A stretch of DNA of 64,000 nt, taken from contig CAJXLF010000010.1 in the NCBI GenBank assembly GCA_913055805.1, forward strand, positions 85,040-149,039, in the 5' to 3' direction. A program made the position numbers and the translations under genes. Positions 1,474 through 50,377 of the stretch are shown here, piece by piece (within the stretch, counting starts at the first letter, position 1; the number at the start of each line of letters is the position of its first letter). The DNA is from an uncultured Salinisphaerales bacterium. Its GTDB lineage: Bacteria; Pseudomonadota; Gammaproteobacteria; Nevskiales; CAJXLF01. A model generated the notes under the pieces. The model was not told the DNA's origin. It searched no databases and saw nothing but the letters and a program-made list of their open reading frames with translations.

Positions 1474-2973
1474 ATGGAGAATCTGATGAATAAATTTTTA
1501 GCCGGCCTGATTGTCACAGCGCTGAGTTTTTTCGCACTCACGGCGCAGGCATTCACTTATCAGCCCATGCTGGATGAAGACCTGAGGGAGCAGGCGCCTG
1601 TCGTATTACGCGGACAGATCGTGGGTGCAGACAAGACATTGCCTGCTCATACCCTCTACCAGGTTGCCGTAGATCAGGTTTACAAGGGGTCGGTGCCGGT
1701 CAACGAAATTACTTTCCTGGTGCCGGGTAACGGTGCCTACGACGGACGCCGTATTCCCGGCATGCCGGCGTTTGATGCGGGCGATGAAGTCGTACTTTTT
1801 CTGGTCCAGGACGGGCAGGGCAGATATCGGCTGGTACAGTCGAGTCTGGGCGCTTTTGTTGCAGCACGCGATGCGACTGGCGGTCCGGTATTTGAACGTC
1901 AGTTAGGTGAGGCCCGGGTGTTACAGCTGCAGGCGCCAAGCCGCTCAGCGGTCAACGAAGTACCGCGCCAGGCCAGTCATTTCCTGCAATGGCTGGGTGA
2001 CCCGGCGCCGGAGCAGGCAAGTCAGACGCTCAGCAGCCCCAGCACGACGGGTGCGGCTGCCGGTACGACCCAGAAGGATGAATTCAGCACCCTGGGGTCG
2101 CCACCTTCCCGCTGGTGGATTTTCGATAGTGGGGGATCTGTAACGGTAAGGGCGCATAGTGCCGGTCAGTCGGGTATGCCGGGCGGCGGCTTTCCCGAGT
2201 TTCAGACAGGTATCACTGCCTGGAATAACGATAGCGGCAGCAAGATCAATTACGTCTACGGAGGCACCACCAGTGCCAGCGGCGGGCTCGATAATACCGA
2301 TGGCGTAACCTCCATTCTGTTCAATGATCCCAACAACGAGATTTCGGGCGCTTTCGACTGTCAGAATGGCGGCGTGCTGGCGATTGGCGGTTTTGCTACC
2401 AGTGGTACGAATCGTAGCTTCCAGAGCCGGACCTTCGGCGAGATTATCGAGGGTGATATCGTGACCAACGATGGGGCAGGCTGCTTCTTCCGGCTTAATA
2501 ATGGCACCAACGGCGAAGAGGTTTTCGCCCACGAACTGGGCCATACCCTGGGGCTGGGACATTCCTGCGAAAACGACGAGCCCCTGCTGGGTATTCCGCT
2601 TGACCCGGAAAACTGTCAGTTAGCGACCAATGCCGAGAACAATGCACTGATGCGCTCCACGCCGCATGCAGACGGGCGGGGCGCCGCCTTGAATTCCGAT
2701 GATCGCGCCGGCGCTGCCTTCCTGTATCCGGAGGATGGCAGCAGTAATCCCGATCCTGACCCCGAGCCAGAGCCCGACCCTGAGCCGGAACCGACCGAGC
2801 AGCCCGACATTAACAACAATGGCGGCGGAGGCGGCGGTGGCGGCGGTGGTGGCGGCTGCAGCCTGGTCACCGGGCAGAACCTGGACCCACTGCTGCCGTT
2901 ATTGCTGTTGTTATCGGCGGGTTATCTATACACCCAGCTGCGCCGGCGCAGGACGGTGCCCGTCGGCCGCTGA
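1474..2973 (+). CDS. secreted zinc metalloprotease (metzincin/matrixin-like) with C-terminal sorting-type tail
   Basis: N-terminal signal peptide (LIVTALSFFALTAQA). HELGHTLGLGH zinc motif. PEPEPDPEPEP and G12 spacers. Tail is GCSLVTGQNLDPLLPLLLLLSAGYLYTQLRRRR. Confidence 0.8.
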   Translation: MENLMNKFLAGLIVTALSFFALTAQAFTYQPMLDEDLREQAPVVLRGQIVGADKTLPAHTLYQVAVDQVYKGSVPVNEITFLVPGNGAYDGRRIPGMPAFDAGDEVVLFLVQDGQGRYRLVQSSLGAFVAARDATGGPVFERQLGEARVLQLQAPSRSAVNEVPRQASHFLQWLGDPAPEQASQTLSSPSTTGAAAGTTQKDEFSTLGSPPSRWWIFDSGGSVTVRAHSAGQSGMPGGGFPEFQTGITAWNNDSGSKINYVYGGTTSASGGLDNTDGVTSILFNDPNNEISGAFDCQNGGVLAIGGFATSGTNRSFQSRTFGEIIEGDIVTNDGAGCFFRLNNGTNGEEVFAHELGHTLGLGHSCENDEPLLGIPLDPENCQLATNAENNALMRSTPHADGRGAALNSDDRAGAAFLYPEDGSSNPDPDPEPEPDPEPEPTEQPDINNNGGGGGGGGGGGGCSLVTGQNLDPLLPLLLLLSAGYLYTQLRRRRTVPVGR

Positions 2974-3414
2974 ATGACCGGGCGTAAACTCAGCAAAGAC
3001 GTTTACTGGTGGGCCGCACTGCTGTGCGGCCCGCTTTTTTGGGCAGGCTTGTGGCTGGCAGGCGTCGATATCCAGAGTCCGGATAGATTCCTGCTTTACT
3101 GGGAGCGTTTTCTGCTGGTTATTCTGATCTACCCGCTACTGGAGGAGATTGTTTTCCGGGGCGCGCTGCAGGGCTGGCTGCTGGAGCGGGGGCTGACAGC
3201 TGCCTGGGGTGGAATAAGTACCGCCAATCTGTTGACCAGCCTGGTCTTTACCGCTTTGCATTTCATTTACCATCCGCCATTTTGGGCGGCGGCGGTTTTC
3301 CTGCCGTCGCTGGTTTTCGGATTCTTCCGGGACCGTTACCAGCGGCTTACCTCAGCTATCGCCTTGCATGTGTTCTACAACGCCGGATATGCCCTTTTGT
3401 ATATGCGGTTTTAG
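2974..3414 (+). CDS. CPBP-family (CAAX-type) glutamic intramembrane endopeptidase, minimal 146 aa
   Basis: All three CPBP motifs are present: LEEIVFRG (EExxxR), FTALH (FxxxH), HVFYN (HxxxN). The protein is multi-TM. Its ATG immediately follows the TGA of the upstream metalloprotease. Confidence 0.8.
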   Translation: MTGRKLSKDVYWWAALLCGPLFWAGLWLAGVDIQSPDRFLLYWERFLLVILIYPLLEEIVFRGALQGWLLERGLTAAWGGISTANLLTSLVFTALHFIYHPPFWAAAVFLPSLVFGFFRDRYQRLTSAIALHVFYNAGYALLYMRF

Positions 3415-7065: not shown

Positions 7066-7189
7066 GTCGAGCAGTCGTATTCTGGATGTCCGACGAGTAT
7101 ACAAACATACCTGCGCTGCGATGTCAGTTGGCAGCTGCTTGGCCTGTCAGCGAGGAGCGGTTATAGTGCGTCATCCAACGTTAAGCATT

Positions 7190-7378
7190 GCGGGAGAGCA
7201 CAGGCAGTTTCGGCCTGTCACCGAAGGCGCAACCCACCCGGAAACGCTCAGGTAAAAGGACCGCGATATCAGTCCCTTGGGGCTGCGTTGGCTCTGGAGA
7301 GTGTGGTTCGATCGAGCCACCACCGACGGGGCAGGGGTGGCGCAGCCATCCTGATCTCTCAGGTTCAGGGACAGAGGG
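7190..7378 (+). promoter_or_regulatory. tandem glycine riboswitch (two aptamers) leading the gcv operon
   Basis: Aptamer 1 contains GGGAGAG...CACCGAAGGCGCAA...CTCAGGTAAAAGGAC. Aptamer 2 contains CTCTGGAGAG...CACCGACGGGGCA...CTCAGGTTCAGGGACAG. It lies immediately upstream of gcvT. Confidence 0.85.
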
Positions 7379-7426
7379 GTGGAGCGCGAAATGCGCACCC
7401 GAACCTGAATCAAGCCGAGAGATTGC

Positions 7427-8509
7427 ATGGCCCAACGCACCGCCCTTTACGATTTGCATGTTGCCGCTGGCGCCAAGCTGGTTGATTTCGCCGGCTGGGA
7501 CATGCCGGTGCAATACAGTTCCCTGATCGAAGAGCACGAAGCGGTGCGCAACAGCGCCGGCATCTTCGACGTCTCGCACATGACCGCGGTGGACATCCAT
7601 GGTCCGCAAACCCGCGATTACCTGCGTTATCTGTTGGCCAATGATGTGGCGCGCCTGCAGCGCGGCAAGGCCATGTATTCCTGCATGCTGGCCGAGGACG
7701 CCGGCGTGATCGACGATCTCATTACCTATTTTCTCAGCGACGAGTGGTTCCGCACGGTGGTCAATGCCGGCACCACGGACAAGGACCTGGCCTGGATGCA
7801 GCAGCAGGCCGCTGACTTCGATGTGCAGATCAAACCACGTCGCGACCTGTGCATTCTGGCCGTGCAGGGTCCGCAGGCGCGCAACAAGGTGGCCGACCTG
7901 CTGCCGGGCGACGACGCCCAGGCGGTGCTCGATCTGGCGCCCTTCAGTGCCGTGCAGCTCGTCGAATGGTTCGTGGCGCGCACCGGCTACACCGGTGAAG
8001 ACGGCTTCGAAATCATTCTCTCCGCCGAAGATGCCAAGGGCCTGTGGCAGCATCTGCTGAATAACGGCGTGGCGCCTTGCGGCCTGGGCGCGCGTGACAC
8101 GCTGCGCCTGGAAGCGGGCATGAATCTCTACGGTCAGGACATGGACGAAAGCACCCATCCGCTGGAATCCGGTCTGGGCTGGACTGTGGCCTGGGAACCG
8201 GAGGAGCGCCGGTTTATCGGCCGCACCGCACTGGAAGCACAACGCGGTAGTTATGCACGTAAGCTGGTCGGTCTGGTGCTGGAAGATCGCGGCGTGCTGC
8301 GCGCGCATCAGAAAGTTTTTACCGCGCAGGGCGAAGGCGAGGTGACCAGTGGTACCTTTTCCCCCAGCCTGCGGCATTCCATCGGCCTGGCCCGCATTCC
8401 CCGCGAAGCCGGTGATCAGGTGGAAGTGGATATTCGCGGCAAGCGCTTGCCGGCCCGGGTGGTGAAATACCCCTTCGTGCGGCACGGCAAGGCACAGATT
8501 GAAATCTAG
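7427..8509 (+). CDS. gcvT: glycine cleavage system aminomethyltransferase (T protein)
   Basis: [30 protein letters not shown]... is the typical GcvT N-terminus. Operon context supports the call. Confidence 0.95.
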
Positions 8510-14078: not shown

Positions 14079-16256
14079 TTGACCGCTGGCAGACGGGTTA
14101 TAGGGGGATCGATCAAGAACAGGAAGAGTGAATCCGCTATACCGCCCCAGCGCGTGCTGCTGGCTGCCGCCATGGCCGGACTCGCAGTCTGGGCGGTTCT
14201 GGTTTATGTCAATCTGCAAGTCCCCTGGTTGGGTTTGAAACTGCTGCCCTCTGAAAACGCCGTGCGCGTAGAGGCTGTGGCGGAGCATCACCCCAACAGT
14301 GCGCGCATAGCGCCGGGTGATGTTCTGCTGACTATCGGCCCGCAGACGGCGGAACCGATACAGCTGCAAGCCGATGACTTGCTCAAGGAACCCGACGTAC
14401 TCATCGACAAGGGAGCCTATTCAGGCTTCATGGCTCGGCAGCAGCGAATTTACTCAGCCTATTCAGGCGGCCGGATGAACGTAGTCCTGTCCGATGGACA
14501 GCGTATCGAACTGCTGGCAGAGGCACGGCCCCTGGGCGCGATTTCCTGGCTGTTTTGGCTGGAGTGCGCCTGGACGCTGACTTGCCTTCTGCTGGGTGCT
14601 GCGATCTGGGCTTTTCGCCGTGACGAAGCCAGTGCTTATCTGCTGGGGACCGGCATCGCCTACTTCGTATTTGTTGCGGGCGACGCCATGTACGGCACGC
14701 GCGAACTGGCGCTGCCATCTGACCTGTTCTATCTGTTTTCCTTTGCCAACAGCGCGGGCGCCATGTTCTATCCTGCCAGCCTGGTGGCGTTGTTGTGGAA
14801 TTATCCCTGCCGTGTCGGTGGCCGATGGTTGCCGCCGGTGATTTTTGTTCTGGCCATCATGGCCTTGCTGGGCAGCCGCCTGCAGTTGCCGGGTACGGGG
14901 CTTTATCTGCTTCCCGCCTTCATTCTTCTGTGCTGTGTTATCGGGCTGGGTCTGGCAGTCATGCAATGGCGCAGGAGTCGCCCGGACCCGGTGGCGCATG
15001 CCATTGCGCGCTGGATCATCGCCATTCTGTTTCTTTCTGTGTGGTTGTCTGCCGTGTTGATGACGGTGCCGGTCTTGCTGGGCATGCGCCAGCTGGCGCC
15101 GCAGAGCCTGTTGTTCGGCGTCTTTCTGATTTTCTATCTGGGCCTGGCGGTAGGTGTGGGCCGCTATCGGGTGTTTGACCTGGATCGCTGGTGGTTCCGG
15201 GCCTGGGGCTGGTTTCTCGGCGGCCTTGTAGTGTTGTTACTCGATGCCTTGCTGCTGTCGTTGTTCCACATGGGCAAGCTGCTGTCTCTCAGCCTGTCGC
15301 TGGCAGTCGTTGGCTGGCTCTATTTTCCGGTGCGGCAGTGGTTGTGGACAGGGTTTTTCCAGCGTACGCAATCGCCGCTGGAGCAGGCCTTGCCACAGGT
15401 AATCGATGTTCTTTTTGCCGTGGATAGCGAGCGCGCTATCCGCGAACGCTGGCCGGAGTTGCTGCAAAAGACGTTTTCGGCGCTTAACGTGGAGTCCGGA
15501 AGGCAAGGGCTGATGCGTATCGAAAGATCCAATGACGGTACACGTTTGTGTATGCCGGCACTAGAAGCTGATGGTGATGTGTTTGAAGTGGTTTATCCGG
15601 CAGGGGGCTCGCGGCTCTTTACCGGCGAGGACATACAGCTGGCGGAAGTACTGCTGGCCTTGATGCGGCGTGCCGTGCAGGCAGTGCGTGCGCGCGAGCA
15701 AGGTGCGGATACAGAGCGTGCACGTATTCGCCGTGACTTGCACGACGACCTCGGAGCGCAGCTTGTGGACATGACCCAGCGTCTTCCGGATAAATCCAGC
15801 CGCGACCAGGCGCGTGAAGCCGTCAGCCGGCTGCGGGCGGTTCTGACGGCCATGGGCGAAGACAGCACCTCACTGTCTGACGCTCTAGGGGAATGGCAGG
15901 CAGAAGCTGATGCCAGGCTGTCAGAAGCCGGTATCAGCTGCGAGTGGCGGGCTGATATTCAGGAAGACCTCAGGTTGACGGCTCGCCAGCGCGCCAACCT
16001 GGTGCATATCCTGCGCGAGGCTATAACCAATATTATCCGTCATTCCGGGGCAGCGAAATCGACATTCAGTTTTTCGGGTGGCCGGGGTGCACTGGAGGTT
16101 GTTATCGCAGACGACGGTCATGGCCGGAATCCTGAGTCCGGCGCCGGTCTTGGGCTGGCAGGTATGCAGCAAAGAATGGAAGAGCTGGGTGGCAGCCTGC
16201 GTCTGGGTCAGTCAGTCCGGGGTGGGTTGCAGCTGGACATCCGGTTGCCTCTATAA
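14079..16256 (+). CDS. sensor histidine kinase (periplasmic PDZ-like segment, ~8-10 TM, HisKA_3 + HATPase_c; NarL/LuxR-partner type)
   Basis: RIRRDLHDDLGAQL (HisKA_3 His box). ILREAITNIIRH (N box). DDGHG...GLGLAGMQQR (G boxes). The start codon is uncertain. Confidence 0.8.
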   Translation: MTAGRRVIGGSIKNRKSESAIPPQRVLLAAAMAGLAVWAVLVYVNLQVPWLGLKLLPSENAVRVEAVAEHHPNSARIAPGDVLLTIGPQTAEPIQLQADDLLKEPDVLIDKGAYSGFMARQQRIYSAYSGGRMNVVLSDGQRIELLAEARPLGAISWLFWLECAWTLTCLLLGAAIWAFRRDEASAYLLGTGIAYFVFVAGDAMYGTRELALPSDLFYLFSFANSAGAMFYPASLVALLWNYPCRVGGRWLPPVIFVLAIMALLGSRLQLPGTGLYLLPAFILLCCVIGLGLAVMQWRRSRPDPVAHAIARWIIAILFLSVWLSAVLMTVPVLLGMRQLAPQSLLFGVFLIFYLGLAVGVGRYRVFDLDRWWFRAWGWFLGGLVVLLLDALLLSLFHMGKLLSLSLSLAVVGWLYFPVRQWLWTGFFQRTQSPLEQALPQVIDVLFAVDSERAIRERWPELLQKTFSALNVESGRQGLMRIERSNDGTRLCMPALEADGDVFEVVYPAGGSRLFTGEDIQLAEVLLALMRRAVQAVRAREQGADTERARIRRDLHDDLGAQLVDMTQRLPDKSSRDQAREAVSRLRAVLTAMGEDSTSLSDALGEWQAEADARLSEAGISCEWRADIQEDLRLTARQRANLVHILREAITNIIRHSGAAKSTFSFSGGRGALEVVIADDGHGRNPESGAGLGLAGMQQRMEELGGSLRLGQSVRGGLQLDIRLPL

Positions 16257-16931
16257 ATGCGGATTCGTTAATCCAAGGCGCGTGGCCTCCATCGCCGCCT
16301 CGGCGCGGGAGGTAACCTGCAGCTTTCGGTAAATGTTCTTGACGTGGTAGGCGATCGTATTACGGCTGACCTCAAGCGCCTGGGCTGCTTCGCTGAGCTT
16401 GTAACCCTTGGTGATCAGCACCAGGATTTCCCGTTCCCTCTGGGTCAAAGGCTCCTCGATCTCGGCGGGCTTGCCGCCAAAAGTGTCCAGCAGGCGTCTG
16501 GCGATCGCCGGTGACAGTGGAGGCTTGCCGTCAATAATGCCGGCCAGACTATCTGCAATCTCCTGCTGCTCCCCTTCCTTGAGCAGGTAGCCCTGGGCCC
16601 CGGCACGCAAGGCAGAAAACAGGTGTTCATCATCGTCGAAGATGGTTATGACCACCGACATGCAATCCGGGTGTTTGGTGCTCAGTTCGGCAATTAATTC
16701 CACCCCCGAACCGTCCGGCAGCCCCAGATCGATCAAGGCCAGATCGGGCGCTCTTTTCAGAAGGCTGCGTCCGCCTTTGACATCTTCGGCCGTGGACACT
16801 TGTGCGTTCGGAAAAGCCAGGTCCAGCGCCCCCGTCAGCCACTCGAGGCTGGCAGGCCGGTCCTCGACCACGATGATTCGGTGGATTGTCTTGGCGGACA
16901 ACGGTTCTCTCCGGTCTGCATGCTGATTCAC
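16251..16931 (-). CDS. LuxR/NarL-family response regulator (REC + HTH)
   Basis: The receiver domain has IIVVEDRP...DLALIDLGLPDGSG. The C-terminus has LTQREREILVLITKGYKLSEAAQALEVSRNTIAYHVKNIYRKL. There is a convergent 6-bp overlap with the kinase gene. Confidence 0.9.
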   Translation of the reverse strand: MNQHADRREPLSAKTIHRIIVVEDRPASLEWLTGALDLAFPNAQVSTAEDVKGGRSLLKRAPDLALIDLGLPDGSGVELIAELSTKHPDCMSVVITIFDDDEHLFSALRAGAQGYLLKEGEQQEIADSLAGIIDGKPPLSPAIARRLLDTFGGKPAEIEEPLTQREREILVLITKGYKLSEAAQALEVSRNTIAYHVKNIYRKLQVTSRAEAAMEATRLGLTNPHL

Positions 16932-17102: not shown

Positions 17103-17270
17103 ATGGCAGATCAGTCACAGGCAGCCATGCCGGCATTGGGCGATAAAAACGATCCCGGTGCTGCTGCCTCGGTCCCCGTTCTTCTACTGCTGTTTTTGCT
17201 GGCTGTGGGCTGGCTGGCGGTGGGTTGGTTCGCCAGCCGGCATGCAAGGAGATCCGGGCCATGGAAATGA
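17103..17270 (+). CDS. possible small membrane protein (55 aa) overlapping the start of the downstream surface protein
   Basis: MADQSQAAMPALGDKNDPGAAASVPVLLLLFLLAVGWLAVGWFASRHARRSGPWK has one TM segment plus a basic cluster. Its TGA overlaps ATG 17261/17267. No clear Shine-Dalgarno sequence was seen, so it may be spurious. Confidence 0.2.
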   Translation: MADQSQAAMPALGDKNDPGAAASVPVLLLLFLLAVGWLAVGWFASRHARRSGPWK

Positions 17271-19483
17271 AAAAACTGAGTTTGGTCGTATCGTTAAGCC
17301 TCCTGCTCAGTTATCAGGTTCAGGCCGCCACGATTACCGTAACTGAAATGATCGACGACGACCCTGCCGTCGATAACGGCGAGTGCAGTCTGCGCGAGGC
17401 GGTGATTACCGCCAATACGGATATGCAGGTTGATAGCTGTGTGCGGGATGGGGTATCGGTGGTGGACCTTATTCAGTTCGATCCGGCAACTGATGTGGAT
17501 CTGGACATTGGCAGTGATGCCTCCTTTGCCATGACACTGAATGTGCCGGGCGAGGATGCGGCGATGAGCGGCGATCTGGATGTGCTGGATAACCTGCGTA
17601 TCCAGGGTAACTTCATTCCCAATTCAGGCAGTGATAAGGGTACGGTGATCGCTGCCGATGGTAATGACCGGGTGTTCCATGTTCTCAACAACGCCTTTTT
17701 ACAACTTGAGAACGCTGTAGTGATTGCTGGCGGTGGAGTGCCCAACGGAGCCGGTATCGCTGTCAACGCAGGCTCTGAGTTGACCCTGCGTCAGGCATTC
17801 CTGTTTGGTAATAATGCCGAATCCTCGAATGTGATAGGTGCGGGGGGCGGTATTTACTCGCTGGGCAATGTGACCATTGAAGAGAGTGGTCTCGTCGGCA
17901 ACCGGGTGAGGTCAGTCGGTACGGCCAATCTCGCAGGTGGCGGCATCGCGGTACAGGGTGATCTGACGATGATCGGCAGCGCCATGATCACTAATGAACT
18001 GATTGCGGCTGCGAATGCCGGCGCTACAGGCGGCTCGATTTTTGTCAGCGGCAATCTCAGCGTCAGCGATACGGTTATCGATAACAGTAACATCGAAGCC
18101 GAAGATGGCGATGCGCACGGAGGTCATATTTACTTCGCTGGTCCGGGCGCCGGCATGTTCAACCTGCAGAACAGTTTTCTGCGTAGCGCAGATATCGAGT
18201 TCACTGGGACAGGTAGTGCGCGTGGTGCGGGTATTTATCATGGGGAAGGCCAGGCCACCATCGAACGCACGACCATCTTCGACAGTGATGTGCAGACACC
18301 ACAGATGAGTTCGCCTGGTGTGGCGTTGGGTGGCGGCATCTTTGCCCTTGATCCGCTCAGCCTGACCAATGCCACGATCATGGGTAACGAAGCTGTCAGT
18401 GCAAGTACTGCCGAAGGTGGGGCCATCTACCTTGGCGAGATGGATGCCAGTCTAGTGCTGAACAACGTGACCATCTTCGGTAATCAGGCTGTTCAGACTG
18501 GCGGTGGAGGTCTTGCTGGCGGAATCAGTAATGTATTTGGCGCCGTGGTGACAGTTGGCAACAGCATCATTGCTGGTAACGCCACTAACGGTAGTGCGCC
18601 GGATTGCCGCGGTGACTTCACATCCGCGGGCTACAATCTGATCGGCGACGAAAGTGGCTGCAGTTTTTCAGCCATGGTCGGAGCGGATATTGTCGGCACT
18701 GCCGCCACACCCATCGACCCGCTGCTGGTACCCGTGCTGGGTGAGGAGCAGTTTGGACCCTTCGAGATATCCGGCTTGCTGCTTTTGCCGCTTGACGAAA
18801 GTCCGGCCATCGATTCTGCTGACTTGGCCATGGCGATGGGTGGCAGTTGCGAGGATATAGACCAGCGCGGCGAATCAAGACCGAAGGATGGCGACGGTGA
18901 TGGAACAGCCATATGTGACATGGGCGCCTACGAAGGCACGATTGATACGCCGGTGGTCAGTTTTAACGATGCTCTCGGTAACCCCGAGATTGAGGAAGAC
19001 GCAGGCAGCATTACTTTCGCGGACGCAGTGGTCCTCTCTCATCCAGTTTCCTTTCAGGTCAGTGTACAGATCGTTTTCGATGCGGGGGTGTCGGATGCCA
19101 TGTTGCCCGCCGATTTCGACTTCTTGCCGGCAATAGTCACGTTTGCTCCGGGCGAGACTACTGCCGACTTGGTGATCACTCCCGTTGATGATGCTGTGGA
19201 TGAGCCGGACGAAGTGATTGTTTTCAAACTGGGCAATGTGATGAGCGCGACGCTGGGTATGCCCGATAGCTTTATGGCGACATTGAAGGACCCGATACCG
19301 CCGCAGCCGGACGACGACGATGATGATGACGATGGCTGCTCTGGCTGGGAATATCTGATCTTCTGTGCCGGTGATGGTTGCAGCATGGGGAGTGGTTCGG
19401 AACGGTTCGATCCGCTGTTGATTCTTATGCTGCTGCTGTCGGGTGGCTACGTTCTGCGGCGGTCTTATATCAAACACGGCTGA
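17261..19483 (+). CDS. large secreted parallel-beta-helix repeat protein (CSLREA N-terminal motif, Pmp-like GGxI repeats, Calx-beta domain) with the same C-terminal sorting-type tail as ORF 1474-2973
   Basis: AAGGAG lies 9 nt upstream of ATG 17261. Signal peptide LSLVVSLSLLLSYQVQA. ECSLREAVITAN motif. Many GGGI/GGAI repeats. The Calx-beta-like stretch is ...ADFDFLPAIVTFAPGETTADLVITPVDDAVDEPDE. A D8 spacer precedes the tail GCSMGSGSERFDPLLILMLLLSGGYVLRR. Confidence 0.8.
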   Translation: MEMKKLSLVVSLSLLLSYQVQAATITVTEMIDDDPAVDNGECSLREAVITANTDMQVDSCVRDGVSVVDLIQFDPATDVDLDIGSDASFAMTLNVPGEDAAMSGDLDVLDNLRIQGNFIPNSGSDKGTVIAADGNDRVFHVLNNAFLQLENAVVIAGGGVPNGAGIAVNAGSELTLRQAFLFGNNAESSNVIGAGGGIYSLGNVTIEESGLVGNRVRSVGTANLAGGGIAVQGDLTMIGSAMITNELIAAANAGATGGSIFVSGNLSVSDTVIDNSNIEAEDGDAHGGHIYFAGPGAGMFNLQNSFLRSADIEFTGTGSARGAGIYHGEGQATIERTTIFDSDVQTPQMSSPGVALGGGIFALDPLSLTNATIMGNEAVSASTAEGGAIYLGEMDASLVLNNVTIFGNQAVQTGGGGLAGGISNVFGAVVTVGNSIIAGNATNGSAPDCRGDFTSAGYNLIGDESGCSFSAMVGADIVGTAATPIDPLLVPVLGEEQFGPFEISGLLLLPLDESPAIDSADLAMAMGGSCEDIDQRGESRPKDGDGDGTAICDMGAYEGTIDTPVVSFNDALGNPEIEEDAGSITFADAVVLSHPVSFQVSVQIVFDAGVSDAMLPADFDFLPAIVTFAPGETTADLVITPVDDAVDEPDEVIVFKLGNVMSATLGMPDSFMATLKDPIPPQPDDDDDDDDGCSGWEYLIFCAGDGCSMGSGSERFDPLLILMLLLSGGYVLRRSYIKHG

Positions 19484-19545: not shown

Positions 19546-20349
19546 ATGCTGACCCATCCCAACTTTGATCCTGTCGCTATTTCTCTTGGTCCGGTAGCAA
19601 TTCACTGGTATGGCCTGACCTACCTGATCGGCTTCGCCGGGGCCTGGTGGCTGGGCACGCGGCGCTGCAATGCGGCCTATGGCTGGAGCCGGCAGGAAGC
19701 GACCGATTTTGTGTTCTATGGCGCCTTGGGTGCCATCCTGGGGGGGCGCATCGGCTATATGTTCATCTATGGCTGGTCGCGCTGGCTGGAAGACCCGCTG
19801 CTGATTCTGCGTATCTGGGAAGGTGGCATGTCGTTCCACGGTGGTCTGATCGGCGTGATGCTCGCCTTCTGGCTGTTTGCCCGCAATACCCAACGCAGCT
19901 GGCTGGCGGTGGGTGATTTCGTGGCGCCTATGGTCTGCGTGCCGGTATTCACCGTGCGTATCGGTAATTTCATCAACGGCGAACTCTGGGGCCGGGTCAC
20001 CGATGTGCCCTGGGGCATGGTGTTCCGCGGCGCCGGGCCTGACGCGCGACATCCTTCGCAGCTTTACGAGGCCGGACTGGAAGGCCTGCTGCTGGGGTTA
20101 TTCCTGTGGTGGTATTCCTCCAGTCCCCGGCCACGCGGCAGTGTTATGGCGCTGTTCGGGCTGGGTTACGCCACGGCCCGTTTCATTGTGGAATTTTTCC
20201 GCCAGCCGGATGCGCACATGGGCTATGTGGCTTTGAACTGGATGACCACCGGGCAGGTGCTGAGTATTCTCATGGCCGCCGCCTCGCTGGCAGTGTATGT
20301 CTGGGCCGTCCGCCGGCCGAATCCGCCGCTATCAAAACAGGAGAGCTGA
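19546..20349 (+). CDS. lgt: prolipoprotein diacylglyceryl transferase
   Basis: HWYGLTYLIGF and GGRIGY motifs. The lgt-thyA order is present. Confidence 0.95.
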   Translation: MLTHPNFDPVAISLGPVAIHWYGLTYLIGFAGAWWLGTRRCNAAYGWSRQEATDFVFYGALGAILGGRIGYMFIYGWSRWLEDPLLILRIWEGGMSFHGGLIGVMLAFWLFARNTQRSWLAVGDFVAPMVCVPVFTVRIGNFINGELWGRVTDVPWGMVFRGAGPDARHPSQLYEAGLEGLLLGLFLWWYSSSPRPRGSVMALFGLGYATARFIVEFFRQPDAHMGYVALNWMTTGQVLSILMAAASLAVYVWAVRRPNPPLSKQES

Positions 20350-21183
20350 GTGCGTACCTATCTGGACATGATGCAGCATATTCTCGACCACGGGACCGAG
20401 AAGGGCGACCGCACCGGTACCGGTACGGTGAGCGTGTTTGGCTACCAGATGCGCTTCAATCTGTCCGAAGGTTTCCCGGTCATCACCACCAAGAAGCTGC
20501 ACCTCAAGTCCATCATCTATGAGTTGCTGTGGTTCCTGCAGGGCGATACCAACGTCAAAGCCTTGCAGGAAAACGGCGTGTCCATATGGGACGAATGGGC
20601 CACGGAAGACGGCGACCTGGGCCCTGTATACGGTAAACAATGGCGCGCCTGGCCGTTGCCTGGCGGCGGTCATATCGACCAGATCAGCCAGCTCATCGAG
20701 CAGATTCGCAGCAAGCCCAATTCCCGCCGCCTGATTGTATCGGCCTGGAACGTGGCGGATCTGCCGGACGAGTCGGTTTCACCACAGGGCAATGCCGCTG
20801 CCGGCCGCATGGCCCTGGCACCCTGTCATGCACTTTTCCAGTTCTATGTGGCGGACGGCAAGCTGTCCTGCCAGCTTTACCAGCGATCCTGCGATGTGTT
20901 CCTGGGTGTGCCATTCAATATCGCCAGCTATGCGTTACTCACGCATATGATTGCCCAGCAATGCGATCTGGATGTGGGTGATTTCGTGTGGACGGGCGGT
21001 GATGTGCATCTTTATAGCAACCACCTGGAGCAGGCCCGCGAGCAGCTCAGTCGCGAACCCTATCCCTTGCCCAGGCTGGCCATTCACCGCAAGCCGGACA
21101 GCATATTCGACTACCGATTCGAGGATTTCGAACTGGAAGGCTACCAGTCCCACCCGCACATCAAGGCACCGATCGCGATCTAG
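20350..21183 (+). CDS. thyA: thymidylate synthase
   Basis: [23 protein letters not shown] and the active-site region [12 protein letters not shown]. Confidence 0.95.
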
Positions 21184-43006: not shown

Positions 43007-43083
43007 TGAGGAGATTGCTTCGCTACGCTCGCAATGACTTGCCTCTTGTCATCGCGAGGAGCGTAAGCGACGCGGCGATCTCC
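43007..43083. repeat. REP-like long palindrome
   Basis: GAGGAGATTGCTTCGCTACGCTCGCAATGAC (43007-43037) pairs imperfectly with GTCATCGCGAGGAGCGTAAGCGACGCGGCGATCTCCTG (43047-43083). Confidence 0.6.
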
Positions 43084-43091
43084 TGCATGGT

Positions 43092-44693
43092 TTGACTATG
43101 TGGCAAAAGGACTGGCGTGAACGCCTGTGGGCCTCGGCAAAGGATCAGCAATGGGACATCATCATCGTCGGTGGCGGCATTACCGGCGCCGGCATCCTGC
43201 GTGAAGCGGCGCGCATCGGTCTGAAAGTGCTGTTGGTGGAGCAGGGCGACTTCGCCTCCGGCACCTCCAGCCGTTCTTCCAAGCTGGTGCATGGGGGGCT
43301 GCGTTATCTCAAGACCGGTCAGTGGAGGCTCACTTTGGAATCGGTGCGTGAGCGTGAACGTCTCATGCGCGAGTCCGGTGGACTGGTTACCCTGCAGGGC
43401 TTTGTCACCGCCGTTTTCAAGGGCCGCAAGCCCGGTTACTGGATGATGAGGTTCGGGCTGTTTCTGTATGACCTGATGGCCCGCAAACGCCGCTTTCGCA
43501 GTCTCGGCCCCGCTGAGGTCGAGATGCTGGCGCCACGTATCCGCCAGGACAGTCTGCGCGGCGGCTTCTGGTATCCCGACGCGCAGACCGATGATGCCCG
43601 TCTGACCCTGCGCGTGATTCAGGAAGCGCAACGCGATGGCGCCGCTGCCGCCAACTACGTGCGCGCCACCGAGCTGATGTTTGATGAGGGCCAGGTCGCC
43701 GGGGTAAGGGTCAAGGATATGCTCAGCGGTGAAGATCATCCGCTGTATGCCCGTCTGGTAATCAATGCCGCCGGCGCCTGGTGTGACCGGCTGCGCCTGC
43801 AGGTGGGCGGCCAGGTTTCCATCCGGCCCCTGCGCGGCAGTCACCTGGTCTTCGACTATGCCGATCTGCCCTGTGCCCAGGCGGTGAGCTTCTTTCATGC
43901 CGAGGACGGGCGGCCGGTGTTCGCCGTGCCCTGGGATGGTCGTGTGATTCTGGGTACCACCGATCTGGATCATGATGGTGATCTGGATGCCGAACCACGC
44001 TGCAGTCTCGAGGAAGCCGAATACCTGCTGCGTGCCATTAATGACATGTTTCCCCGAAATCCGCTTAGCCTGGAACAGGCCATTGCCAGTTATGCAGGCG
44101 TGCGTCCGGTGATTGCCTCGGGCAAGGCGCTCAATCCGTCCGAGGAATCGCGTGAACACGCCCTGTGGCAGGAGAAAGGGTTGTTGTCCATTACCGGCGG
44201 CAAGCTCACCACCTACCGCACCACCGCCCTGGAAGTACTGCAGGCAGCGGCCGAACAGATTCCCGAGGCAGACAAGCTCGATGCCGAGGCGCCCATCCTG
44301 GCAAGTACCCGGCCGGTCCGGCATGCCTCGCTGGGCGCATTGTCTGCCCGACGCCTGCTCGGCCGTTACGGGGCAGCCGTGCACGACATGCTGGCCCAGG
44401 CCGATGAGGCCGATCTGCAACCCATTCGCGATACGCAGTATCTGTGGATTGAACTGCGCTGGGCTGCCCAGCATGAGGCGGTGATGCATCTGCAGGACTT
44501 GATGCTGAGGCGTACCCGCCTGGGTCTGGTGCTCAGCGATGGTGGCGTAGGTCTGCTGCCGCGCGTTCGTGAACTGTGCCAGGCGGCTCTCGGCTGGGAT
44601 GATCAGCGTTGGGAACTGGAGGCCGGCGAATATCAGCGTCAGTGGCAGGCCAATTACGCGCCACCTGATCGGCAGGAGGGCAGCTATGCCTGA
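43092..44693 (+). CDS. FAD-dependent glycerol-3-phosphate dehydrogenase/oxidase-like protein
   Basis: [19 protein letters not shown] dinucleotide fold. [15 protein letters not shown] is a GlpD-type motif. Confidence 0.8.
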
Positions 44694-46248
44694 ACATGGC
44701 GACGTGCGACTGCTGGCCATTGACGTGGGCACCCAGAGTGCCCGCGCCATCGTGTTTGATCTGGAGGGCAACATCCAGGCCAAGGCCCAGGTGCCCATCG
44801 AGCCCTATTTTTCTGAACAACCCAACTGGGCCGAGCAGGACCCCGATCTGTACTGGCGCTCGGTGTGCGAGGCCTGCCAGGCACTGTGGGAGCAGGGACA
44901 GGACCCCGGTCACATCACCGGACTGTCGTTGACCACGCAACGCTCCACAACCGTGAATGTGGACGTTAACGGCAAGCCACTGCGTCCGGCCATCGTGTGG
45001 ATGGACCAGCGACGTACTGAAGGTTTGCCACCCGTGGGCGGCCTGTGGGGGCTGGCCTTCAAGCTGGCCGGCGTCAGCGACACGGTGGCGGATTTCCAGT
45101 CCAAGGCGCAGGCCAACTGGATCAGCAAACATCAGCCTGATATCTGGGCGCGCACCCACAAACAGCTGCTGCTTTCCGGCTATCTCAGCTTCAAGCTGAC
45201 AGGCGAGTTCGTGGATTCCTCCGGCTGCCAGGTGGGCTACGTGCCCTTCGACTTCAAGAAACTGGAATGGGCCGGCAAAAAGGACTGGAAGTGGCAGGCG
45301 GTCAGTATACGGTCTGAGCACCTGCCGACGCTGAAGCATCCCGGCGAGCAGTTGGGAGTGCTTTCCGAGGCTGCTGCTGTCGAGCTGGGGCTGTCTGCCG
45401 GCCTGCCGATCATTGCGGCCGCCGCCGACAAGGCCTGCGAAGTGCTGGGCGCGGGCTGTCTGGAGCCGCATCAGGCCTGCTTGAGTTTCGGTACCACTGC
45501 CACGCTCAACACCACGCGCGGCAAGTATCTGGAAGTGATTCCCTATATCCCGCCGTACCCGGCTGCATTGCCCGATGCCTATAACAACGAAATCCAGATT
45601 TACCGGGGTTTCTGGATGGTGTCCTGGTTCAAGGACGAGTTCGCGCATCGTGAAAAGAAGATGGCGGAACAGAAGGGCGTCAGCACCGAAGAACTCTTTG
45701 ACGACATGATCCGCAACGTGCCGCCTGGTTCCATGGGCCTCATGCTGCAGCCGTACTGGTCACCGGGTGTGCGTGAACCGGGGCCGGAAGCCAAGGGTGC
45801 GGTCATAGGTTTTGGCGACGTACACGGTCGCGCGCACTTCTACCGTTCCATTCTGGAAGGTCTGATATACGCACTCAGGGAAGCCAGGGAAAAGACCGAG
45901 AAGAAGGGCAAGGTGGTAATTACCGACCTGCGCATTGCCGGCGGTGGCTCGCAAAGCGATATCGCCATGCAGATTTCGGCCGACATCTTCGGCATGCCCG
46001 CCATGCGCCCGCATATCTACGAAACCTCGGCGCTCGGGGCCGCGATCAGTGCCGCCGTGGGACTGGGTTACTATGCGGATTATTCCCAGGCCCTGTCCGC
46101 CATGACCCGGCCGGGCGATACCTTCCAGCCCGACCCGGATGCCACCAGGCTATACAATGACCTCTACACCCGCGTGTACAAGAAGATGTATCCGCAGTTG
46201 AAGGATCTGTACAAGGAAATCCGGGAAATAACGGGTTATCCGCCTTAG
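44686..46248 (+). CDS. FGGY-family carbohydrate kinase
   Basis: The start is set at [25 protein letters not shown] (FGGY N-terminal motif). It overlaps the upstream stop by 8 nt. Confidence 0.85.
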
Positions 46249-48671: not shown

Positions 48672-50377
48672 AGATTCAAGGCATAATACTCTTGACATAA
48701 AGTTCTTGAAACTGAGGGGGCTATAGTTACACTCATTGATAACATCGCAGTAAATGCATCTGAGTGATATCCATACAATTATGTTCTCAGCAAAGAGCTA
48801 AGAATTAACTGCTATATAGCTAAATAACTAGGAAGATAAATAGAGAGGAGGTAGGACATGTTTTATTGGACGCATGTTCGAAAAGCGTTTTGGCGTACTT
48901 CTGCGAAGCTTCATGTCCCCCAATGCTTATTTCTTTTGTGCTTGGCTGTTTTCTCTTCTGGCTTAGGGGCGTGGGAAGAAGATTATGAGATTCTGAGAGA
49001 TGACGATTATGTATGTGATCAGGATTCGAATATTTTAGAAAGCAAGAAAAGGAGAGGGCTTGCTTCTTTGATCCAGGCTGTTGAGTCCAAAAAAGTAATA
49101 TTAGTGGTTAATAAAGGTACTTTCTCTCTTAATAAATTTAAAAACTCAAGAACTCGGAGAATCAGTTATTCGAAGAACAACTGGATCCCCAATGGAAGTG
49201 TGGTGGTATTTGCCAATGATTTAGAGCCTGGAATATGTATTCCGATTAGATCAGCCGACGAATCAATTTATTATTTTAATGTGATTAGCGATGAGGGTGT
49301 CTCAGGATATGTGGAAAGACAGTATTTATCTACACTGCCTTACCCTGAAGGTGACGAGAAATACTATTTTCCCAGAAGCGAAATAAAAATTTACAAAAAC
49401 AAAGAACATTCTGAAATTAAATCATCCGCAAATCCAATACAAGGTGTGTATTTTAGATACTTGGCAAGTAAACCAGGTGTGAAGCAAGTCAGTTATTTCC
49501 ATCTACTTGGAAATGAAGATCGATTTGATGTTTGGAGAGGGGAATCTATTGATGCACAAATAGAAAAAGAGGTCGGTTGGATTAAATCAGAGGAATTAAG
49601 TGCTGGACGAATTAAAGAGGTATCTAAGAAAAATCTAAGTTTATTGAGGCAGATCAAAATTCAAAAGCAGCGAGGAAACGAGAGTGATAAGGATGCTTTT
49701 ATAACTACTCTAAGTAAATTAAGAGATCAGGAAAAAATCAGGCAAGTGGTTAAGAAGCTAAAATCTGAGTTACCCTCTAATTTTTCTTGTAATTCTGAAG
49801 TGGATGTGGAATTAGCTGCGGGTATTGAGGCGAAAACGCCGCCGTTTTTTGTCGCCCTAAAGGGTAATGTGGGCGGAAATGTTAAATGGGTGATAAAAGA
49901 GAAGAATACGAAACTTCTTTATGAAAACTACAAAATTTATTCAAGTTCCTTAGGGCAAAATTTAGCTGTGGTTCGAAGGGCAAAGTGTAAAGATGATGAT
50001 GTGTTGGATGAGCTTGAATTTGTGAAGTTCAGTCTGCCTCAATTAGGTACGGAAACGCCATTGGTTTTTGGCATGAAAGAAAACGGAGAAAAGTTAAAGG
50101 ACCACATAGCCAAAACATACTTTGGCAAAATAAGTGATCCGAAGATGTATCAGATATCAGGCCATGAAAGCTGGTTGACGGTCTATCAATATGTAGAAAA
50201 TAGCTTGGTAAATAAATCCCCTGCCCAATGGAGTGACATCACAACCGCAAGTAATACAGACGGCACGAGTCAGGAGTATGCACTAAGACAGGCTTTGCGG
50301 GCATTCATTATTCAGAGAATTGCACACTTTAAAAATTAGTTGCTATAGCTATTGCTTATTTCGTTAAATCAGCTATA
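48672..50377. mobile_element. AT-rich ~1.7 kb islet bounded by 20-bp direct repeats (48652-48671 / 50378-50397) that duplicate the yajQ 3' end
   Basis: The left repeat is GCTCAGTCCCGGAAGTTCT and the right is GCTCAGTCCCGAAAGTTCT (19/20 identical). Both encode NFRD-stop on the minus strand. The composition between them is visibly AT-rich compared with the flanks. No recombinase is present. Confidence 0.55.
48858..50339 (+). CDS. hypothetical 493-aa protein (ORFan), N-terminal signal/anchor
   Basis: Strong GGAGG Shine-Dalgarno sequence 7 nt upstream. It is the only long ORF in the AT-rich islet. No family was recognised. There are two possible SH3b-like segments and a Lys/Glu-rich central stretch. 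Confidence 0.6.
   Translation: MFYWTHVRKAFWRTSAKLHVPQCLFLLCLAVFSSGLGAWEEDYEILRDDDYVCDQDSNILESKKRRGLASLIQAVESKKVILVVNKGTFSLNKFKNSRTRRISYSKNNWIPNGSVVVFANDLEPGICIPIRSADESIYYFNVISDEGVSGYVERQYLSTLPYPEGDEKYYFPRSEIKIYKNKEHSEIKSSANPIQGVYFRYLASKPGVKQVSYFHLLGNEDRFDVWRGESIDAQIEKEVGWIKSEELSAGRIKEVSKKNLSLLRQIKIQKQRGNESDKDAFITTLSKLRDQEKIRQVVKKLKSELPSNFSCNSEVDVELAAGIEAKTPPFFVALKGNVGGNVKWVIKEKNTKLLYENYKIYSSSLGQNLAVVRRAKCKDDDVLDELEFVKFSLPQLGTETPLVFGMKENGEKLKDHIAKTYFGKISDPKMYQISGHESWLTVYQYVENSLVNKSPAQWSDITTASNTDGTSQEYALRQALRAFIIQRIAHFKN

Follow-up and report, generated by a model that had tools for sequence, protein, structure and literature searches.

The JDVT-CTERM/MrtJ protein-sorting system was described in silico as a two-gene system (Haft 2023, 10.1101/2023.06.07.544157; NF033191 and NF033192), and both of its proteins are named by NCBI annotation models. 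By the published definition, a JDVT-CTERM tail has one Cys only, followed nine residues later, within a Leu-rich helix, by a nearly invariant DP and then by an Arg cluster; the tailed protein and its CPBP protease were adjacent in 16 of 17 cases, and partial phylogenetic profiling also recovered the protease, by a very wide margin (10.1101/2023.06.07.544157). Here we analyse a 64,000-nucleotide stretch of contig CAJXLF010000010.1 from an uncultured Salinisphaerales bacterium (hereafter, the window), near the start of which a gene for a secreted metzincin directly adjoins a gene for a small CPBP intramembrane protease, and we consider it highly probable that this pair belongs to the JDVT-CTERM/MrtJ system as previously described.

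A related system has been studied at the bench. In Myxococcus xanthus, MrtX is required for MYXO-CTERM proteins to be cleaved C-terminally and anchored at the surface (Guo, Haft & Wall 2025, PMC11980579), and this cleavage depends on the conserved Cys and also occurs in Escherichia coli when MrtX is co-expressed (PMC11980579). In the model of those authors, the Cys is first lipidated by another enzyme, for which Lgt is the leading candidate; the CPBP enzyme then cuts distal to the Cys, and the type II secretion system delivers the product to the surface (PMC11980579). MrtX and MrtJ share the CPBP core, and the tails on which they act, or with which they are paired, agree in their three-part layout and invariant Cys; MrtX, however, serves dozens of unlinked clients and carries an extra N-terminal domain, and the MYXO-CTERM signature, unlike the tail in the window, often reads GCGC and is followed by a helix without DP. 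The GlyGly-CTERM/rhombosortase and PEP-CTERM/exosortase systems follow a similar tripartite logic on secreted hydrolases, with passenger families reused with varied anchors (hence 'choice-of-anchor'); however, their enzymes are a rhomboid serine protease and an exosortase Cys transpeptidase, respectively, their signatures lack an invariant Cys, and their models have no match here.

The assignment of the window pair rests on both proteins. The 146-residue product of the downstream gene reaches 120.5 bits against the MrtJ equivalog model NF033192 (cutoff 75) and stays below the cutoffs (in brackets) of the sister models Mrt_core at 58 (100), MrtP at 54.5 (250), MrtC at 49.4 (195), MrtS at 42.7 (130) and MrtX at 27.1 (180); it also matches PF02517 (Rce1-like) with 58.4 bits. 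The three CPBP motifs that the original prediction had read in this protein are all found (Table 1), and residues E57, E58, R62, H96, H132 and N136 are invariant across 31 homologues (44-58% identity) and further sets of 30 and 50 (alignments A1, A2 and A3). The AlphaFold2 (AF2) model of MrtJ is all-helical with a predicted local distance difference test score (pLDDT) of 95. At its extreme C terminus, the metzincin reaches 39.0 bits against NF033191 (cutoff 27, E = 5.5e-10), and a local hidden Markov model (HMM) of such tails, run on 5,627 tails of open reading frames (ORFs), gives E = 3.8e-13, with junk matches appearing only above E = 0.01.

From its N-terminal side, the tail comprises Cys462, D471-P472, a Leu-rich transmembrane helix LLPLLLLLSAGYLY, the cluster R490-R493, which ends just past the HMM match, and finally TVPVGR. 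The original prediction had the Cys, the helix and the Arg cluster right and erred in ending the protein at RRRR, as the six residues TVPVGR still follow. It had also left undecided whether the tail was JDVT-CTERM or an undescribed tag; because NF033191 is passed (39 bits against 27) and the spacing of Cys and DP is as published, the tail is not a distinct undescribed tag. Among the four models that had been proposed for deciding the matter, JDVT-CTERM and MrtJ pass, MrtC remains below its cutoff and MYXO-CTERM gives nothing; for the window proteins in general, no curated cutoff of the MYXO-CTERM and myxosortase models (TIGR03901, NF040593, NF040594 and NF040674) is reached, and neither the MYXO-CTERM nor the GlyGly-CTERM model matches at E <= 1. 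The metzincin stop codon (TGA, 2971-2973) directly adjoins the mrtJ start codon (ATG, 2974), so that the two reading frames, their coordinates and their abutment are as first reported, as are the signal peptide, the HELGHTLGLGH site and the Gly12 spacer of the metzincin. A public gene call on the same DNA (L081) places the metzincin start at Met5 (nt 1486), which yields 495 residues. With both curated models above their cutoffs, the proposal of a CPBP sorting enzyme and its substrate is supported. Like the published examples, the pair combines the canonical tail and enzyme with a gammaproteobacterial host, a secreted hydrolase as client and a tight two-gene unit. As JDVT-CTERM/MrtJ is already described and encoded in NCBI annotation models, the novelty of the pair itself is low, and it adds a further case to a curated two-gene system of protein sorting. 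What is new here is the metzincin slot with and without Cys and mrtJ, a second client upstream of lgt, a survey of 80 MrtJ loci with diverse passengers, and a TIMP/NtA-like N-terminal OB domain in the structure model of the metzincin.

Table 1. Features of the metzincin-mrtJ pair and of the second client region, in window coordinates
Feature	Position (nt)	Strand	Extent and content	Basis
Metzincin client gene	1474-2973	+	499 aa	ORF read from sequence
Predicted Sec signal peptide	1474-1551	+	aa 1-26, MENLMNKFLAGLIVTALSFFALTAQA then FTY (cut between AQA and FTY)	read by eye
N-terminal OB-fold domain, TIMP/agrin-NtA-like	1552-1908	+	aa ~27-145	AF2 model, Foldseek
Zinc motif HELGHTLGLGH, followed by Ser364	2530-2562	+	aa 353-363	sequence
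ALM Met-turn	2644-2652	+	aa 391-393	sequence
Disordered Pro/Asp/Glu linker PDPDPEPEPDPEPEP and Gly12 spacer	2740-2856	+	aa 423-461	sequence; pLDDT <50
JDVT-CTERM sorting domain	2842-2949	+	aa 457-492 of 499	NF033191
Cys462	2857-2859	+	single Cys of the signature	sequence
D471-P472	2884-2889	+	nine residues after Cys462	sequence
Arg cluster R490-R493	2941-2952	+	ends just past HMM match	sequence
mrtJ	2974-3414	+	146 aa, minimal CPBP glutamic-type intramembrane protease	NF033192, PF02517
MrtJ motif EEIVFR	3142-3159	+	aa 57	sequence
MrtJ motif FTALH	3247-3261	+	aa 92	sequence
MrtJ motif HVFYN	3367-3381	+	aa 132	sequence
Second JDVT-CTERM client	17261-19483	+	740 aa, ~14 kb from mrtJ	public gene call P0241
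Second client tail GCSMGSGSERFDPLLILMLLLSGGYVLRR	19376-19462	+		NF033191, 30.4 bits (cutoff 27)
lgt	19546-20349	+	62 nt past second client, same strand	
thyA	20350-21183		follows lgt	

Comparative evidence comes from the chromosomal slot that the pair occupies. In the window and in five relatives (L084, L085, L086, L170 and L171), a metzincin with a Gly run and Cys is followed by an abutting or overlapping mrtJ within the shared arrangement argA-argE (-) / metzincin-mrtJ / ygfB-pepP-ubiH (+); the adjacency on which the original prediction had staked itself is therefore kept in 6/6 Cys-bearing metzincin orthologues of this slot, window included, with MrtJ of the five relatives being ~50-58% identical where measured. 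The same argE/ygfB slot also holds orthologous metzincins without mrtJ (L087/L088, L089 and L174, the last with two tandem paralogues), and there ygfB begins a few bases past the metzincin stop or overlaps it. Alignment places the difference in the protein precisely: the tails at mrtJ-less loci miss 'C plus about 7 residues' and retain the Gly run, the D(P), the helix and the basic end. Hence, syntenic orthologues either have both mrtJ and the Cys signature or have neither. Outside the slot, a Cys-less orthologue at another locus (L173) has no mrtJ; a paralogue with the Cys, encoded at a different locus (L172) in the sample that also gave L086, has no adjacent mrtJ. No Cys-less protein next to mrtJ was found among the loci examined. 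The counts (Cys-bearing with and without mrtJ, 6/1; Cys-less, 0/4) give a one-sided Fisher p = 0.015, in a table that is small and has phylogenetically non-independent entries. This co-occurrence, which the original prediction had asked to be tested, supports, as read from the sequences, a link of MrtJ to the Cys signature specifically, and the contrast between orthologues with and without Cys signature and mrtJ indicates which determinant MrtJ probably recognises.

One conceivable extension is that the Cys signature and mrtJ form one module that came or went as a whole while the protease was otherwise unaltered and its slot stayed the same, with the residual Cys-less poly-Gly-x-D(P)-helix-RxRR tails of Nevskiales-like relatives being a distinct, uncurated anchor or sorting signal; we put this forward tentatively and regard the combined scenario as doubtful. 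The Cys-less tails, of the form 'GGGGGG-x-x-D(P)-LLLL...RxRR' (L087/L088, L089 and L174; P0132-P0164), have no NCBIfam sorting-signal match at E <= 0.05 and may in their own right be an uncurated anchor or sorting signal. A metagenome scan for metzincin orthologues gave, among the matches listed, distant homologues only (<=41% identity), with FN3 or other C-termini and without mrtJ, and the 2x2 table was not enlarged by it. One further locus with the same neighbours, L040 (Salinisphaeraceae metagenome-assembled genome OZ244134.1, 4727-6405; argE / client-mrtJ / ygfB), was rejected as a metzincin orthologue, as BLASTP identified its 421-residue JDVT-tailed product (no Pfam match) as an unrelated passenger, and it was left out of the 2x2 table; given that this passenger is unrelated to the metzincin in the same slot, it has been swapped within a fixed cassette position.

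A wider sample of 80 loci with MrtJ homologues, all of which reach the NF033192 score level, was drawn from GTDB species representatives, and their flanks were scanned with the local HMM built from 27 tails. A JDVT-like client lies within 6 kb of mrtJ at 30 of these loci: immediately upstream on the same strand at 20, adjacent in another orientation at 6 and one gene away at 4, with two clients at each of four loci (L039, L062, L064 and L079). The passengers next to MrtJ include M10-like proteases, M4 thermolysin, S8 subtilases and several proteins without a Pfam match, and the metzincin family is in turn also found with FN3 and other C-termini; as the passengers vary, the tail is the shared element and a portable module. 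The sample departs from the published picture in that a client near MrtJ is far from universal at species level (30/80), and the window itself departs from it in a second respect, as the description gives typically one client per proteome and the 64 kb here encode at least two, of which one lies 14 kb away from mrtJ. At Granulosicoccaceae-type loci (L004, L011, L015, L017, L036, L041, L063; L022 and L053) a gene for an OmpA-C-like protein stands directly upstream of mrtJ; at L022 and L053 a gene for a very large JDVT-tailed protein precedes the OmpA-like gene, an arrangement that suggests a three-gene variant of the JDVT-CTERM/MrtJ system.

On the basis of MrtX and of the joint presence and absence of mrtJ and the Cys signature, we infer that MrtJ cleaves the JDVT-CTERM tail, and the following sequence of events can be envisioned. 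The metzincin would be exported by Sec through its N-terminal signal peptide, and the tail helix would then tether it to the inner membrane with the Arg cluster on the cytoplasmic side; Cys462, at the periplasmic face, would probably be lipid-modified by a separate enzyme, after which MrtJ, as an Rce1-like glutamic intramembrane endopeptidase encoded by the abutting gene, would cut just after the Cys, leaving a mature protease that is kept on the cell envelope or surface, probably by its lipid anchor. The removal of the tail and the modification of Cys462 in vivo are proposed here by analogy. With the eukaryotic and archaeal Rce1 enzymes that act on prenylated CAAX (MmRce1, PDB 4CAD), MrtJ has in common the motifs EExxxR, FxxxH and HxxxN and the PF02517 match, and Rce1 cuts immediately after a lipid-modified Cys near the C terminus; Rce1, however, takes three residues off a cytosolic protein, whereas MrtJ, at about half the size of Rce1 and with a weak structural match to it, would remove a transmembrane tail of ~37 residues from an exported protein. 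It is also conceivable that MrtJ cuts the tail without any lipidation of the Cys, so that the protease is released to the medium or periplasm and the Cys serves as a recognition residue or in a disulfide. This finds some room in the fact that lipidation in the four Cys-containing CTERM classes is stated by Guo et al. as a hypothesis (PMC11980579), but Rce1 and MmRce1 cleave only after a lipidated Cys, MYXO-CTERM proteins remain on the cell surface and TraA is released once its tag is removed (PMC11980579), and acylation would be in keeping with where the Cys lies, at the membrane face; we thus regard release without lipidation as rather unlikely.

Several points weigh against the proposed cleavage and anchoring by MrtJ, besides the size of the 2x2 table. 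The experimental evidence in the literature concerns the sister enzyme MrtX, so the function of MrtJ is taken over from it by analogy, and what is said here of the cleavage and its site, of lipidation and of where the protease ends up is likewise extrapolated from MrtX/MYXO-CTERM and Rce1/CAAX processing. The Foldseek comparison of MrtJ with MmRce1 (4cad_F) is not significant (query TM-score, TMq, 0.50; E = 4.8). As the D(P)-helix is retained in orthologues without the Cys, it cannot alone serve recognition by MrtJ. Finally, once the 14 of the 80 loci with flanks too short to judge are set aside, 36 of the 66 adequately flanked MrtJ loci have no tripartite-tailed ORF within 6 kb, so that adjacency of client and mrtJ is common but not universal; it is plausible that in such genomes the clients are encoded away from mrtJ, as the second client of the window shows.

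An alternative is that the tail is an uncleaved membrane anchor and that the CPBP protein provides immunity or self-protection against the adjacent protease, as for bacteriocin-associated CPBP/Abi proteins. That Cys-less orthologues appear functional with poly-Gly, helix and Arg alone and no adjacent mrtJ, that many mrtJ genes have no client nearby, and that bacteriocin immunity is among the roles attributed to CPBP proteins (background in 10.1101/2023.06.07.544157) would all sit well with such a role. Against it, mrtJ follows the Cys signature and not the protease domain, given that Cys-less copies of the same protease go without mrtJ, and unrelated tail-bearing passengers (S8, M4 and proteins of unknown type) have mrtJ as well; moreover, the catalytic residues of MrtJ are all invariant, and MrtX, the closest characterised relative, cleaves such tails (PMC11980579), which together make an immunity role very unlikely. 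A reading of the Gly12-helix-Arg tail as a GlyGly-CTERM-type signal for a rhombosortase elsewhere or another sorting enzyme, with MrtJ accessory or irrelevant, can draw on the long Gly run before a hydrophobic helix and basic cluster, on homologues of both passengers with Cys-less Gly-rich tails and on a weak resemblance of the second client's N terminus to rhombotarget A, but we give it hardly any credence, as GlyGly-CTERM has no match at the threshold given above whereas JDVT-CTERM scores above its cutoff, no rhombosortase occurs among the annotated window ORFs (not every ORF was scanned), and this reading offers no explanation for the close, conserved linkage with mrtJ. It is the tracking of the Cys signature by mrtJ, together with the lack of a GlyGly-CTERM match to the curated models, that disfavours both of these alternatives relative to sorting by MrtJ. 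The original prediction had likewise seen no sorting enzyme of another class, and indeed no sortase, exosortase or rhombosortase is found among the annotated window ORFs, a scan that took in only part of all ORFs.

The window encodes a second JDVT-CTERM client, in which a signal peptide and a CSLREA-like N terminus precede a choice-of-anchor-Q beta-helix and a Calx-beta-like domain, with the tail behind an Asp8 spacer. Its predicted signal peptide, read from the sequence, is MEMKKLSLVVSLSLLLSYQVQA with the cut before A; the NF033191 match spans aa 718-746 of 752 in the scanned protein, the local tail HMM gives E = 1.1e-9, the choice_anch_Q model gives 35.4 (cutoff 25), and D stands 10 residues past the Cys. 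As there is only one CPBP gene in the 64 kb, with none found besides mrtJ, MrtJ probably serves this second client too. At 14079-16256 (+) lies the gene for a sensor histidine kinase whose N-terminal region is large and polytopic; it overlaps tail to tail with one for a NarL/LuxR-type response regulator (16251-16931, -), and the latter is divergent from the second client gene; this two-component pair may regulate the second client.

Downstream of the second client lies lgt, with no terminator-like site in between (17261-19483 / 19546), and this placement is worth recording because the literature favours Lgt for the unassigned lipidation step. The adjacency could reflect functional coupling of the second client to Lgt, and it bears weakly on which enzyme modifies the invariant Cys. 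It is a weaker lead than the module of Cys signature and mrtJ. No lgt or thyA homologue occurs in any MrtJ-centred locus, and the closest full-length JDVT-tailed homologue of the second client (L175) has neither lgt nor mrtJ alongside. The lgt-thyA pair is a widespread housekeeping arrangement. Given these negative recurrence checks and the commonness of lgt-thyA, the adjacency is probably coincidental.

The metzincin itself is a secreted matrix metalloproteinase (MMP)-like, or matrixin-like, enzyme of MEROPS family M10, clan MA(M), as judged from its zinc site, Met-turn and modelled fold. Pfam models Peptidase_M10 (PF00413; 25.0 against a gathering threshold of 24) and Reprolysin_5 (28.7 against 27) match just above their thresholds, and profile matches in the PDB are to serralysins and MMPs at E ~3e-4. 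In the alignment of 38 orthologues (A4), residues H353, E354, H357, H363 and M393 are invariant, and both HELGHTLGLGHS and ALM are unchanged throughout. An AF2 model built on these 38 orthologues is confident for two domains. In one of them, residues ~205-420 superpose on the catalytic domains of MMP-3, MMP-12, MMP-13 and karilysin (Foldseek, TM-score 0.6-0.7). The other is an N-terminal oligonucleotide/oligosaccharide-binding (OB) fold with pLDDT mostly >90 and no Pfam or NCBIfam match; its top PDB match is one RNA-exosome subunit, and the remaining matches are to agrin NtA (1jb3, 1pxu) and to the N-domains of TIMP-1 and TIMP-2 (3ma2_C, 1uea_B, 1br9), at E ~1e-4 and TM-scores of 0.4-0.56. Directly before this domain, A26 is invariant, and the mature N terminus, [FL]-[TS]-[YF]-x-[PQ]-M, is strongly conserved (A4). 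The conserved mature N terminus and the predicted OB fold suggest that this bacterial MMP-like protease may carry an intramolecular TIMP-like domain for latency. A metzincin and a TIMP-like lipoprotein are encoded as a gene pair in Listeria (PMC8235301), which likewise associates a bacterial metzincin with a TIMP-fold OB domain, but as two separate proteins; in the window the TIMP/NtA-like fold, known from the predicted structure, is the protease's own N-terminal domain. Between catalytic domain and tail, the spacer has exactly 12 Gly (aa 450-461), and a poly-Gly run directly before the Cys is conserved among orthologues. A 146-residue MrtJ together with an easily assayed protease as client makes the pair a compact experimental test case.

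Within mrtJ, 35 nt from its start, lies a strong terminator-like hairpin (3008-3035, +) with a 12-bp stem that includes 9 GC pairs and is followed by six T. It was rejected as a conserved attenuator, as the homologous codons form a stem in 4 of 6 sequences, the U-tract is found in 2 of 6 and z-scores are modest; the hairpin is probably a by-product, because the W-A-A...G-P codons are inherently self-complementary in GC-rich coding sequence.

The rest of the window is housekeeping in character (argE, ygfB-pepP-ubiH, gcvT, gcvP, the two-component system, lgt-thyA, MltF, purL, NAD-glutamate dehydrogenase, a pyrroloquinoline quinone (PQQ) dehydrogenase, SelO and one tRNA-Ser). For two long ORFs, 43026-44798 (-, 591 aa) and 48858-50336 (+, 493 aa), Pfam gives no match at E <= 1e-5; the former overlaps other long ORFs and may be spurious. 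Upstream of gcvT (7427-8509), a tandem glycine riboswitch (7181-7384, +) comprises two RF00504 aptamers (66.7 and 50.6 bits) in the ordinary arrangement.

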